Positions 8,521 to 15,043 of a stretch of 64,000 bases of DNA are shown here, one piece after another; the stretch's first letter is position 1; the number at the start of each line of letters is the position of its first letter. The DNA comes from an uncultured Chloroflexia bacterium (lineage in GTDB: Bacteria; Chloroflexota; Limnocylindria; Limnocylindrales; CSP1-4), in the NCBI GenBank assembly GCA_963712735.1, contig CAVQIZ010000002.1:186791-250790 (forward strand), read 5' to 3'. The notes below the pieces were generated by a model that made no database searches, had not been told where the DNA came from, and saw only the letters and a list, made by a program, of their open reading frames with translations. The translations under genes were made by a program, and so were the position numbers.

Positions 8521-8548
8521 TTGACACCTGGTTCTCGAGTGCTAGGCT
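8521..8548 (+). promoter_or_regulatory. candidate sigma70-like promoter (TTGACA-N16-TAGGCT) for sorC and the microcompartment operon
   Basis: TTGACA at 8521..8526, TAGGCT at 8543..8548, 30 nt upstream of sorC ATG; direct repeats ATGAGCA x2 between promoter and start could be an operator. Confidence 0.3.
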
Positions 8549-8577
8549 TGCTGCATATGAGCAGGTGCATTGCTCGA

Positions 8578-9565
8578 ATGAGCACGCCCGCAGCCACCGC
8601 TCCGGACGCCGTCTCGGAAGACACGCGCCTGATGCTTCGGGCCGCGCAGCTCTACTACCACGGCGAGCTCACGCAGGACGCCATCGGCAAGCGCCTCGGC
8701 GTGAGCCGCTTCAAGGTCGGCCGACTGCTGGAGCGTGCCCTGCGCGAGGAGGCGGTGAGGATCGAGATCGTCCACCCGGCGTCACGACTGGTGGCCCTGG
8801 AAGACGCGCTCCGCGAACGCTTCGGCCTCGGCGAAGCCATCGTGGTGGACGTGCCCGCCGGAGGCGACCAGGCCGAAGACGAGCAGCTGGCGCGTGAGCG
8901 CGTCGCGGCCGCGGCCGCCGACCACCTGGCATTCGTCCGGCCGCAGGGCGTCATCGGCGTCTCCTGGGGTCGCACCATGCTGGAGCTGGCAGCCCGCCTG
9001 CAGCCGGGCTGGACGCAGGCCAGCCAGATCGTGCAGCTCAACGGCGCCATCTCGCGCTCGGCGCAGCCCACCCGCTACCAGGACGTGGTGGAGCGCTTCG
9101 GCAGCACCACCGGTGCCGGCATCCAGCTGATGCCGGCGCCGGCGATCGTCGGCAGCGCCGAGCTGCGGCGCGCGCTGGAGGCCGACCCGGCCGTCAGCCA
9201 GCCGTTGAAGGCCGCCCGCCGCGCCCCCACGGCCATCTTCGGCATGGGCGTCATGGGGCCCGAGAGCGTGCACGTGGCCTCCGGCTATCTCGATGCCAAG
9301 GCCCTCCGGCGGCTCGAGCGGGCCGGCGCCGTGGGCGACGTGCTGGGCCGCTTCATCACCATCGAGGGGCGCATCGCCCTGCGCGGTCTCGATGCACGCA
9401 CCGTCGGGCATGCCCCTCGACGAGCTGCAGGGCAAGCGGCTCACGCTGGGCCTGGCTGCCGGTCCCGGGCGCGGACCCATCGCCCTGGCCGCGCTGCGCG
9501 CAGGCTGCATGAACACCTTCGTGACTGACGAAGCCACGGCCGAGTGGGTGCTCGAGCATGACTGA
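8578..9565 (+). CDS. SorC/DeoR-family sugar-binding transcriptional regulator (frameshift near 9410)
   Basis: HTH LTQDAIGKRLGVSRFKVGRLLERA plus SorC sugar-binding domain (GVSWGRT...GMGV...); C-terminal 45 aa (MPLDELQGKRLTLGLAAGPGRG...[15 protein letters not shown]) lie in the +1 frame. Confidence 0.75.
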
Positions 9566-10140
9566 CCAGCGCAGCCCTTCGGCCGATGAGGTGCGGGCGC
9601 TGGTGCGCCGCATCGTCGATCAGACGCTCGAGACGAGCGCGCAGCCAACGCCAGCCGCACGACGGCCGGGTGGTGGTGGCCATCGCCGGCGACCACGGAG
9701 GCTGGCGCATGAAGGACGCCATCGGCAGCTGGCTCACGGAGCACGGCTACGGGGTGCGGGACTGCGGCACGGATAGTGACGAGGCCGTGGACTACCCCGA
9801 CTACGCGCTGGCGGTGGCCCGGCTGGTGGCCGATGGTTCGTGTCGCTGGGGCATCGTCGTCGACGGCGCCGGTATCGGCTCGGCCATGGCGGCCACCAAG
9901 GTGCCCGGGGTGCGTGCCGCCAACTGCCACGACCTCTCCTCGGCGCGCAACAGCCGCGAGCACAACTACGCCAACGTCCTCACCCTGGGCGCCGGCTTCC
10001 TGGGCACGGCCCTGGCCCTCCAGATCGTGGAGACCTGGCTGGCGACCGACTGGGGTGCCGAACGACACGGCGCCCGCGTAGACAAGATCACCGCCATCGA
10101 GCGCTCCTACAGCGGCGCCAGCGAGGGAAAGGACCGATGA
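9558..10140 (+). CDS. rpiB: ribose-5-phosphate isomerase B-family (RpiB/LacAB) enzyme with N-terminal encapsulation-peptide-like extension (frameshift ~9660)
   Basis: ATG 9558 overlaps the sorC stop; [34 protein letters not shown] (amphipathic helix + linker) in one frame, then [33 protein letters not shown]...ANCHD (RpiB core) in the next; shift inside GGTGGTGGTGG. Confidence 0.75.
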
Positions 10141-11024
10141 CCGACACCATCGACAATCGCGACGCACTCGTGGAGGCCATCACGCGCGAGGTGCTCGCCG
10201 CACTCGGCTCCGGCAGCCCGGCGGCCGATCCGAGCGACCCCTGCGCCGGCTGCCTGCAGAGCTGCGCGGCGCAGTGCGCCACCAAGGTGCGCTCGCTGAT
10301 GGCCGGCGGTGCCGACCGCATCGAGTACCACGGGCCGGCCAACGAGGTGCCGCTCGACCTCGCGCGCTACATCGACCACACGCTGCTGCGACCCGATGCC
10401 TCCGCGGCAGACATCGACAAGCTCTGTGACGAGGCCGCCGAGTACCACTTCGCCTCGGTCTGCGTGAACCCGACCTGGGTGCGGCGCGCTGCCACCCGCC
10501 TGCGCGACACCGATGTCGCGGTGGCGTCGGTCATCGGCTTCCCCTTCGGCGCCACGCCCTCCGATGTGAAGGCCTTCGAGGCTCGACGCGCCGTGCGCGA
10601 CGGCGCCCGCGAGATCGACATGGTCATCAACATCGGCGCGCTCAAGAGCGGCGACCACGACCTGGTGCGGCGCGACATCGCCCGCGTCTCGGACGCCTGC
10701 CACGAGGCCGGCGCCATCAACAAGGTCATCATCGAGACGGCGCTGCTGAGCGACGCCGAGAAGATCATCGCCTCGCGCCTCGCCGTCGAGGCCAGGGCGG
10801 ACATGGTCAAGACGTCCACCGGCTACGCCAAGGGCGGAGCCACCATCTACGACGTCGCGCTCATGCGCGAGACGGTCGGGCCCAAGCTGGGCGTCAAGGC
10901 GGCCGGCGGCATCCGCACGGCCGAGGATGTACAGGAGATGATCGCCGCCGGCGCCACCCGCATCGGTGCCTCGGCCGGCGTCACCATCGTCAGCGGACAG
11001 GGAGGCGCCAGTGGCCAGTATTGA
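10137..11024 (+). CDS. deoC: deoxyribose-phosphate aldolase (DeoC) with ~70-aa N-terminal extension (encapsulation-peptide-like helix + Cys-rich segment)
   Basis: ATGA overlap with rpiB; [50 protein letters not shown]... then DeoC core [14 protein letters not shown]...VIGFPFG...MVKTSTGY...KAAGGIRT (Schiff-base lysine region). Confidence 0.85.
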
Positions 11025-13861: not shown

Positions 13862-14475
13862 TGCCGATCGCCCGCGGCCGACTCCCCTCCCGCCATCGAG
13901 CCGGCGCTGGGGCTGCTCGAGCTGGAGACGGTGCCGGCCGGCATCGCCGCCGGCGACGCCATGGCCAAGCGCGCACCCATCGAGCTCATCCGGGCCGGTA
14001 CCGTGCACCCGGGCAAGTTCCTCGTGCTCGTGGCCGGCGCGGTGGCCGATGTCGAGGAGGCCCTCGCAGGCCGGCCGCGAGAGCGGCGGCCTGGCCGTGC
14101 GCGACGTGGTCTTCCTGCCCCACATCCACGCCGACGTGGTGGCGGGCGTGCGCGGACGGCGCCTGGCGGCCGGGACCGAGGCGCTGGGCATCATCGAGAC
14201 GGCCACCATCCCGGCCATCATCCGTGCCGCCGATGCGGGGGTGAAGGGCGCGCAGGTGCAGGCTGCTGGAGCTGCGGCTGGCGGATGACCTCGGCGGCAA
14301 GGGCTACCTGCTCTTCGACGGCGCCGTCTCCGAGGTGGAGGCGGCCGTCGAGCTGGGCCTGGCCGCGGTGGGCGAGGCGCGCGGCCTCAGCGCACGCGTC
14401 ATCGCGCAGCTGCACGCCGAGATGGCGGAGAACCTCGCCGCCGACGCCCGCTTCGCCGCGCGAGTCGGGGCGTAG
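13861..14475 (+). CDS. tandem-BMC-domain shell protein (PduT-like BMC-T), frame broken 2-3 times
   Basis: Domain 1 ALGLLELETVPAGIAAGDAMAKRAPIELIRAGTVHPGKFLVLVAGAVADVEEAL (frame 2), linker/second-domain start in frame 0 (EALGIIETATIPAIIRAADAGVKGAQVQ), C-terminus LLELRLADDLGGKGYLLFDGAVSEVEAAVELG... in frame 1 ending TAG 14475; likely start GTG 13861 overlapping aldDH stop needs one more shift. Confidence 0.65.
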
Positions 14476-14479
14476 TCCG

Positions 14480-14771
14480 ATGCAGCTCGCACGCGTGACC
14501 GGCACGGTCGTCGCCAGCACCAAGGTGGCGGGGCTCGAGGGCGTCAAGCTGCTCATCATCCAGCCGCTCGACCGCGCCCTGCGGCCCGGCCGGCAAGCCG
14601 GTCGTGGCAGCTGACGCGGTGCACATGGCCGGCCCCGGTGAGCTGGTCTACTTCGTGGCCTCGCGGGAGGCGGCACAGGCGCTCGAGGAGACGTTCGTGC
14701 CGGTGGACCACGCCATCGTCGGCATCGTCGACGCGGTCACGGAGCTGCCCGCTGCGGAGGACGGCGCGTGA
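14480..14771 (+). CDS. BMC-P vertex protein (EutN/PduN family), copy 2, frameshift ~14590
   Basis: [36 protein letters not shown] then (frame 0) GKPVVAADAVHMAGPGELVYFVASREAAQALEETFVPVDHAIVGIVDAV...; stop TGA 14769..14771. Confidence 0.75.
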
Positions 14772-15043
14772 AGCTCGCGCGGGTGGTGGGCAACGTCGTC
14801 TCCACCATCAACACGCCGGACTTCGAGGACCGCACCCTGCTGCTGTGCGACCTGCTCGGCCCGGACGGTGCTCCGGCCGGCGGCTACCAGATCGCGGTCG
14901 ACAACATCGGCGCGGGCGCCGGCGAGATGGTGCTGCTGCTCGACGAGGGCAACGGCGCGCGCCAGGTGCTGAACGCCCCGGGCGCGCCCATCCGCACGGT
15001 CGTCATCGGCATCGTCGACGAGGTCATCGAAGACGCGCGCTGA
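14768..15043 (+). CDS. BMC-P vertex protein (EutN/PduN family), copy 3
   Basis: GTGA overlap with previous gene; MKLARVVGNVVSTINTPDFEDRTLLLCDLL...YQIAVDNIGAGAGEMVLLLDEGNGARQVLN...VVIGIVDEV. Confidence 0.85.
   Translation: MKLARVVGNVVSTINTPDFEDRTLLLCDLLGPDGAPAGGYQIAVDNIGAGAGEMVLLLDEGNGARQVLNAPGAPIRTVVIGIVDEVIEDAR

Follow-up and report, generated by a model that had tools for sequence, protein, structure and literature searches.

The window analysed here is a stretch of 64,000 nucleotides (G+C content 70%) from an uncultured Chloroflexia bacterium, and it carries a ten-gene operon for a bacterial microcompartment (BMC), an organelle bounded by a protein shell. By the match of its features to the published description, the operon (true gene span 8578-15043, + strand) is of the SPU3 type, a subtype of the sugar-phosphate (SPU) class of microcompartments. 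By analogy with published SPU systems, its organelle probably breaks down deoxyribose phosphate. Seven single extra bases interrupt five of the genes in the window, and these are most likely sequencing or assembly errors and not decay of the locus. We have good confidence in this reading as a whole, namely an SPU3-type deoxyribose-phosphate operon carrying erroneous insertions. The analysis addressed gene content and order, protein families, catalytic and gating residues, N-terminal extensions, purifying selection and conservation of the gene cassette.

Enzymes, shell proteins and subtype assignment

Coding on the + strand was unbroken from ~8600 to 15030, as judged by codon-position GC and a seven-state Viterbi segmentation. 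The ten genes, all on this strand, follow the order SorC/DeoR regulator-RpiB-DERA-BMC-T(dp)-BMC-H-BMC-P1-AldDH-BMC-T(s)-BMC-P2-BMC-P3, where DERA stands for deoxyribose-phosphate aldolase, AldDH for aldehyde dehydrogenase, and BMC-H, BMC-T and BMC-P for hexamer, tandem-domain and pentamer shell proteins. Several of them overlap: SorC/RpiB by 8 nt, RpiB/DERA by 4, DERA/BMC-T(dp) by 14, AldDH/BMC-T(s) by 1 and BMC-P2/BMC-P3 by 4. Because the G+C content is 70%, lists of open reading frames (ORFs) in the window are full of shadow ORFs; the long minus-strand ORFs across the locus (such as 11038-13320 and 8782-10167) were rejected as such, since codon-position GC tracks the + frames. Pfam was run on translations of the supported frames, after the five frame-broken genes had been stitched across their breaks. 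The search covered the ten locus genes, most other coding segments of the 64 kb and the flanks of related loci; for 31000-34854 (Pst-like) and ~2270-8440, the gene content was taken from reading by eye or from the gene calls of relatives.

The signature enzyme DERA (10137-11024, + strand, 295 aa, intact) matched Pfam DeoC (2e-21) and the PDB DERA 8QPS (E=3.6e-76), the latter alignment starting at residue 73 (core 73-291). The core shares ~60% identity with canonical DERAs and keeps every catalytic residue, and the Asp/Lys/Lys set (D161, K225 and K254) was invariant in 30 relatives (alignment A1). An N-terminal extension of 72-75 aa precedes it, made of a helix, a linker and then the motif C36-x2-C39-x3-C43-x3-C47. 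The extension helix is kept in relatives; the housekeeping DERAs (L054, L057, L071 and L072) have no extension at all. An AlphaFold2 model gave pLDDT values of 83-96 for the core and 34-57 for the extension, with a low-confidence helix at residues 5-24, and confidence in the extension was too low to support the published helix-plus-two-strands description or to show how the four Cys are arranged.

The RpiB-like protein (9558-10140, + strand, 193 aa without the extra base at 9653) matched Pfam LacAB_rpiB (2e-48) and the Clostridium thermocellum RpiB 3PH3 (1e-41). It has an Asp in place of the catalytic Cys (GIVICGTGLG in 3PH3) and keeps the His motif SREHN. The hallmark of SPU loci is thus present, that is, a protein of the ribose-5-phosphate isomerase family (RPI, pfam02502) with Asp for E. 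coli Cys66 and with His99 kept. Its restored N-terminus carries a targeting-type helix resembling an encapsulation peptide. A second RpiB gene is found at 62686-63096 (+ strand; LacAB_rpiB, 9e-49), with a GGSGTGEQ motif like that of Mycobacterium tuberculosis RpiB; it presumably encodes the housekeeping isomerase, distinct from the Cys-to-Asp paralogue in the operon. The third enzyme, a coenzyme A (CoA)-acylating AldDH of the PduP/EutE type (12406-13861, + strand, 484 aa without the extra base at 12783), matched Pfam Aldedh (2e-37) and Rhodopseudomonas palustris PduP (5JFL, E=1e-124) with the catalytic Cys kept, and homology starts at residue 21, after a 20-residue N-terminal helix.

The shell genes encode one hexamer, two tandem-domain and three pentamer proteins. 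BMC-T(dp) (11011-11637, + strand, 208 aa, intact) is a permuted tandem-domain, CcmP-like trimer protein. Its match to the Pfam BMC model was weak (7.6e-5), and identical proteins in relatives are annotated with Pfam CsoS1D_N. Ranked by similarity, with no tree, its best solved match was CcmP 4HT5 (E=7.7e-86, against 1.3e-48 for CsoS1D), followed by the shell T proteins 5V76 and 5V74 of Haliangium ochraceum (HO), and the gating pair E70-R71 is kept. BMC-H (11704-12018, + strand, 104 aa, intact), with KAAK and ARPH edge motifs, matched Pfam BMC (1e-30) and was closest among solved proteins to HO-5815 of H. ochraceum (E=2.9e-40). BMC-P1 (12088-12375, + strand, 95 aa, intact) comes after BMC-H and matched Pfam EutN_CcmL (1e-28) and the HO shell BMC-P 5V74_A1 (E=3.3e-32). 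BMC-T(s) (13861-14475, + strand, 203 aa without the extra bases at 13866, 14067 and 14258) is PduT-like, with two Pfam BMC domains (3e-32) and matches to PduT 3PAC/3N79 at E ~1e-30; it has a His where PduT has the pore Cys that ligates an Fe-S cluster (TVHPGKF against TICPGKF). BMC-P2 (14480-14771, + strand, 96 aa without the extra base at 14583) and BMC-P3 (14768-15043, + strand, 91 aa, intact in the window) matched EutN_CcmL at 2e-24 and 2e-22. Against the H. ochraceum shell, the T proteins scored ~1e-66 to 1e-73.

SPU loci were defined in 2014, and an expansion in 2021 brought the catalogue to ~280 loci, spread over 26 phyla and sorted into seven subtypes (PMC8217296). In SPU3 the only enzymes are AldDH, a pfam01791 DERA and a pfam02502 RPI, with no phosphotransacylase (PTAC) (Sutter et al. 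2021, PMC8217296, Supplementary Data 2). AldDH and DERA carry N-terminal targeting peptides, and the shell is made of one BMC-H, a BMC-P triplet, a CcmP-like BMC-T(dp) and a BMC-T(s) without the pore Cys, with no PduS; the hosts listed include Chloroflexi and Actinobacteria (PMC8217296). SPU2 has a fourth BMC-P and a T(s) that mostly bears the Cys. Every point of the SPU3 description was found in the window locus, from the enzyme set, targeting peptides and shell complement to the lack of PTAC and the host phyla. Features of the SPU class at large were also present: a DERA with Asp/Lys/Lys beside shell genes and with an extension of ~70 aa, the Cys-to-Asp RPI, an AldDH with a targeting-type helix at the N-terminus, where every subtype except SPU6 has its peptide, and three BMC-P. 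A Pfam test of the SPU3 enzyme set found no TPI in the locus; PTAC, alcohol dehydrogenase, PduS and acetate kinase were all absent from the Pfam-scanned window and from the flanks of relatives. Two differences in detail were noted. RPI and DERA are separate genes here and are fused in 12-20 catalogued SPU3 loci, and the operon of the window's sub-lineage is led by a SorC/DeoR-type regulator, a point on which we found no statement for SPU3 in the SPU papers.

The first-pass annotation of this DNA had described the same ten genes, in the same order, as a complete operon at 8521-15043 with a shell of one BMC-H, two tandem-domain BMC-T and three BMC-P genes and an enzyme set of DeoC, RpiB and acylating AldDH under a SorC/DeoR-type regulator. 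The inventory, shell count, enzyme set and end point all stand, the shell count on both Pfam and solved-structure matches. The start does not, as 8521 is the position of a TTGACA hexamer and the regulator begins with the ATG at 8578, and neither does the word complete, since half of the genes are frame-broken in the window. The profile searches it had proposed (BMC, EutN_CcmL, DeoC, LacAB_rpiB and Aldedh) all gave matches, so no shell candidate failed its family model, the first BMC-T matching weakly. Its assignment to the SPU class was borne out by the presence of DERA, RPI and AldDH within a shell-gene locus. Identity to a characterised Pdu, Eut or glycyl-radical locus, which it had raised as a possibility, did not emerge, as no PduCDE, EutBC or glycyl-radical signature enzyme was found in the locus or in the Pfam-scanned rest of the window.

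Substrate, regulator and the cysteine cluster of the aldolase

What is proposed below on the substrate, on encapsulation, on the flow of metabolites and on what the RPI-like protein does is drawn from the literature. Dwyer, Sutter and Kerfeld (2024) purified an SPU6 DERA that was active on deoxyribose 5-phosphate, found negligible ribose-5-phosphate isomerase activity for an SPU RPI, the Cys66-to-Asp change being common to all SPU RPIs, and detected a DERA-RPI complex (PMC11585597). The exit of acetyl-CoA through BMC-T(dp) was proposed for subtypes without PTAC (PMC11585597). In the scheme that we favor, the operon would be controlled by its DeoR-like SorC regulator, and deoxyribose 5-phosphate from deoxynucleoside or DNA breakdown would enter an H. 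ochraceum-like shell. DERA in the lumen would cleave it into glyceraldehyde 3-phosphate plus acetaldehyde, and the PduP-like dehydrogenase would convert the acetaldehyde to acetyl-CoA and NADH. Because no PTAC, alcohol dehydrogenase or PduS is encoded, acetyl-CoA would have to leave, CoA to enter and NAD(H) to be exchanged across the shell, presumably through the gated BMC-T(dp). The RpiB-like protein, with its Asp for the catalytic Cys, would most likely be a DERA-binding packaging partner and not a ribose-5-phosphate isomerase, and the N-terminal helix-plus-linker extensions on all three enzymes would target them to the lumen.

The regulator (8578-9565, + strand, 328 aa without the extra base at 9406) combines a helix-turn-helix with a sugar-phosphate-binding domain (Pfam Sugar-bind, 4e-52). 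Its best solved relative was the Bacillus subtilis deoxyribonucleoside regulator DeoR (8R7Y, E=5.5e-38), and both control an operon that includes a DERA gene. An Asn of the window protein (QLNGA, ~8990-9000) aligns to the Lys of the DeoR motif VVQLKGG, which we take to be the residue that deoxyribose 5-phosphate binds as a Schiff base in B. subtilis. We therefore dropped the idea that the two proteins sense this sugar phosphate in the same way; effector recognition by the window regulator may differ from the covalent binding that we assume for DeoR. The two operons also differ in content, since that of the window is for an organelle and lacks genes for a nucleoside transporter or phosphorylase, in contrast to dra-nupC-pdp.

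Several points weigh against the overall reading. The published enzymology concerns an SPU6 enzyme and not SPU3 or the lineage of the window, the RPI-like protein has no established role in the scheme, and the recycling of NAD+ and CoA without PTAC, alcohol dehydrogenase or PduS is unexplained. The effector of the regulator is not established, given the Asn at the position of the DeoR Lys. Support for the targeting helices from the hydrophobic moment is weak, as this measure did not discriminate targeting peptides (0.56 for the regulator, used as a control, against 0.42-0.65 for the three enzymes). As for the insertions discussed below, their technical origin was deduced and not observed in the source reads, and they lie outside homopolymers, which is atypical for some error modes.

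Some of these points could be cited for a model where the shell and core are those of an SPU organelle and the native substrate is not deoxyribose 5-phosphate. The DERA/RPI-like pair would then act on another sugar or deoxy-sugar phosphate, or run an aldol condensation. The RPI-like protein is conserved, with its own targeting helix and a dN/dS of 0.18, yet the cleavage of deoxyribose 5-phosphate is not known to involve it; the DeoR Lys is missing from the regulator, and there are no deoxynucleoside-catabolic genes nearby (nucleoside phosphorylases, phosphopentomutase, deo genes and further shell genes were all absent from the Pfam-scanned window and from the flanks of relatives). DERAs are moreover known to accept other aldehyde acceptors. 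We nevertheless consider this model unlikely: the DERA core stays close to canonical DERAs with its catalytic residues all in place, of the single SPU DERA and the single SPU RPI that have been tested, the first cleaves deoxyribose 5-phosphate and the second shows no activity, and the closest solved relative of the regulator controls the deoxyribonucleoside operon of B. subtilis. Breakdown of deoxyribose phosphate thus remains the function that we would assign to the organelle.

The four-Cys cluster of the DERA extension (window 10242-10277, DERA residues 36-47) was invariant in 30 close relatives. Among the fetched loci, at least four Cys were present at the cluster site in 18 of the 29 SPU3-like DERAs and in 16 of 20 SPU6-like ones, the latter with the spacing C-x3-C-x4-C-x3-C; the four-Cys motif was absent from the RPI-DERA fusions and the housekeeping DERAs of the same set. 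Variants labelled Acidimicrobiia read C-x2-C-x3-C-x2-H, and orphan DERAs that have a targeting helix and no shell genes nearby read C-x2-H-H-x2-C. Since such Cys-to-His swaps retain a potential metal ligand, the pattern suggests a metal site. The searchable text of PMC11585597 contains no discussion of the cluster, which is possibly an unreported detail of the locus. Tentatively, as a possibility and short of a probability, we propose that in the SPU signature enzyme the cluster binds a metal or an Fe-S center, at a site not yet described.

Frame breaks within and outside the operon

As the sequence stands, the five broken genes carry seven single extra bases, each shifting the frame by +1: 9406 in the SorC gene, 9653 in the RpiB gene, 12783 in the AldDH gene, 13866, 14067 and 14258 in the BMC-T(s) gene and 14583 in the BMC-P2 gene. 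Three-frame translation showed the +1 jump once in each of SorC, AldDH and BMC-P2, and two such jumps within the body of the PduT-like gene. A metagenome contig with 96.4% identity to the window, L001 (ENA ERZ25039603 contig_56556), served to pin the extra bases by alignment. The base at 13866 falls in codon 2 of the PduT-like gene, and that at 9653 splits the targeting helix of RpiB from its catalytic domain. Deletion of the seven bases yielded ORFs of 328, 193, 295, 208, 104, 95, 484, 203, 96 and 91 aa in gene order, with no internal stops and with lengths as in relatives.

Sibling contigs encode the broken proteins in one piece. AldDH (484 aa), BMC-T(s) (203 aa) and BMC-P2 (96 aa) are intact in L001, the regulator (328 aa) and AldDH (484 aa) are both intact in a second contig, L085, and a third, L002, lacks all six of the seven extra bases that fall within its coverage. 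Programmed frameshifting was rejected, as no shift is needed for these proteins in the sibling contigs. The siblings have indels of their own, L001 in BMC-P3 (at window position 14817) and L002 one that splits its AldDH. L085 and another contig, L084 (ERZ25039603 contig_66705 and contig_66706; ~64 kb), both end inside the PduT-like gene, which contig_56556 spans; this points to variation between strains or to a break in the assembly at the locus.

With the insertions removed, dN/dS between the window and L001 was 0-0.18 for every gene, broken ones included. The AldDH genes differ by 29 synonymous and 4 non-synonymous changes and the PduT-like genes by 9 and 0; the value for the RpiB-like gene was 0.18. 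We also applied a homology-free detector, which calls a frame change on one strand without a stop codon nearby. It reported 25 breaks outside the locus (0.43/kb) and 2 inside (0.31/kb; Poisson tail probability 0.77), and 24 of the 27 were +1 (an extra base), including 22 of the 25 outside. The breaks outside, at least 25 in number, include those at 7827, 18191, 22102, 23044-24411, 26619, 27398, 27924, 29308, 29733 and 35444, and further on at 39035, 39847, 42139, 42473, 47492, 48790, 50228, 50569, 56528, 58051 and 58841. Alignment placed extra bases outside the locus at 4603, 4864, 7831 (chromate transporter), 15156 (P-type ATPase) and 18199 (Ppx), and in PPK1, ornithine transcarbamylase (OTCase), arginine deiminase (ADI), carbamate kinase and asparaginase II single Pfam domains run on from one frame into the next. 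Because of the extra base at 15156, a P-type cation ATPase of 920 aa, whose counterpart in L001 ends near 15121, loses its true stop; a 1074-aa ORF on the minus strand (14648-17872), running antisense through BMC-P3, was discarded as an artefact of this base.

The insertions were judged technical because they occur at ~1 per 2 kb and also hit housekeeping-type genes under purifying selection. If the frameshifts were real, the locus and much of the region would be a recently inactivated pseudogene cluster, for which one could cite the seven breaks in five genes and the fact that none of the inserted bases sits in a homopolymer run. This is very unlikely, given that dN/dS is low throughout, that no further inactivating change is found in the locus, and that breaks are equally frequent outside it, in the housekeeping-type PPK1, GltX, OTCase and P-type ATPase genes. 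The excess of +1 insertions is moreover the opposite of the usual bacterial indel bias, which is toward deletion, a density of ~1 break per 2 kb is implausible for a living genome, and L001, L002 and L085 are intact at the sites they cover. Sequencing or assembly error thus remains the most likely origin of the seven extra bases. A practical consequence is that an ORF-based reading of the window is unreliable and frame correction is needed: a gene caller would break up the regulator, the RPI targeting peptide, the AldDH, the BMC-T(s) and one of the BMC-P into fragments.

Relatives, distribution and neighbourhood

The SPU6 system of Chloroflexi bacterium GWB2_54_36 (PMC11585597) shares with the window locus the DERA extension of ~70 aa, the Asp/Lys/Lys residues, an RPI that carries a targeting peptide of its own and has Asp where the E. 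coli enzyme has Cys66, the BMC-P triplet and BMC-T(dp). It differs in its GntR-type regulator, in its AldDH, which is of another clade and has the targeting peptide at the C-terminus, in its lack of a BMC-T(s), and in its gene order, RPI-DERA-P-AldDH-H-Tdp-P-P; the window AldDH is only 30-35% identical to the AldDHs of SPU6-like loci. The H. ochraceum shell (5V74 and others) provided the closest solved homologues of BMC-H, BMC-P and the BMC-T proteins, its complement of H, T and P proteins is similar, three BMC-P included, and the catalogue sets HO beside the SPU types. The view that the locus is an HO-type microcompartment and not an SPU one is scarcely credible, however, as HO main loci consist of shell genes and AldDH, have no known function and never include DERA or RPI (their aldolase is a pfam00596 class II enzyme, found in about half of type II main loci and in satellite loci of type I), whereas DERA and RPI inside the operon, as in the window, define SPU.

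The cassette was followed in public loci, using one genome per species. The order RpiB-DERA-Tdp-H-P-AldDH-Ts-P-P was identical in at least 25 loci, labelled Chloroflexia, Chloroflexota, Acidimicrobiia, Thermoanaerobaculia, Acidobacteriota, Promineifilaceae and others, and a separate SPU6-like set came from Anaerolineae. The closest syntenic relative, L015 (metagenome-assembled genome MFD09964.bin.2.52, labelled uncultured Chloroflexia bacterium), aligns over 1152-20555 at ~81% DNA identity. In more distant relatives the cassette at 8609-15030 aligns alone, without its flanks, and this suggests that the operon moves as a unit.

A promoter-like sequence, TTGACA-N17-TAGGCT (8521-8549, + strand), was read from the letters themselves, with low confidence, upstream of the regulator ATG. 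Scans of 8300-15300 reported no consensus promoter and a single terminator match, at chance level and on the wrong strand; an Rfam scan of the whole window found no RNA family, and a repeat search upstream of the regulator gave short chance-level matches only. A perfect tandem 9-mer, ACGGCACAG, occurs in two copies with 10-nt spacing at 8496-8514, in the divergent region between the chromate transporter and regulator genes, which is rich in indels relative to L002.

The flanking genes are unrelated to the operon: isochorismatase, EamA, an ADI-family protein, DUF72, Dps and ChrA upstream, and P-type ATPase, Ppx, S9 peptidase, the arginine deiminase pathway, PPK2, PPK1, CHAD and Pst/PhoU downstream. 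The region 21550-39035 holds the heavily frame-broken arginine deiminase pathway (arcA, OTCase, carbamate kinase) and a phosphate/polyphosphate island with PPK2, PPK1, CHAD, PhoU, a low-molecular-weight phosphatase, a histidine kinase/response regulator pair and Pst-like transporter genes identified by eye. As far as can be told, no functional link of these genes to the microcompartment operon is apparent. Further downstream lie genes for an F420H2-dependent quinone reductase family protein (PF04075, 1.7e-7; 52450-52821) and a luciferase-like monooxygenase (PF00296, Bac_luciferase, 1.8e-35; 54537-55372), in keeping with F420 use by the organism.

The first-pass annotation had seen in a high-G+C, F420-using organism a good candidate for a novel catabolic organelle of a class never characterised biochemically. 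The G+C content and F420-related families are as it said and add nothing unusual. The claim to novelty fell to the catalogued SPU3 subtype, with the same nine-gene order in at least 25 public loci, and the second claim had been overtaken by the activity of the SPU6 DERA, the inactivity of the RPI and the DERA-RPI complex already demonstrated (PMC11585597). Its suggestion that acetaldehyde from a deoxypentose phosphate would be sequestered in the shell is the published model of SPU function (PMC8217296, PMC11585597).

The locus is an ordinary member of a catalogued and partly characterised subtype. Its value is mainly one of annotation, and it does not advance the questions of the in vivo substrate, the role of RPI or the recycling of NAD+ and CoA. 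The class, of which hundreds of members are already catalogued, gains from the window one SPU3-type locus that probably belongs to a soil lineage of the Chloroflexota. Published SPU hallmarks are shown to hold in this lineage, namely the Cys-to-Asp change in RPI, the extended DERA, a gated trimer of the CcmP-like kind and a lack of cofactor-recycling enzymes. If the Cys cluster of the DERA extension does bind a metal or an Fe-S center, it could serve in core assembly, redox sensing or electron handling in microcompartment subtypes without PduS or an Fe-S shell protein. The conserved Cys4 module on DERA is a lead, cheap and testable, for work on the assembly of SPU cores.

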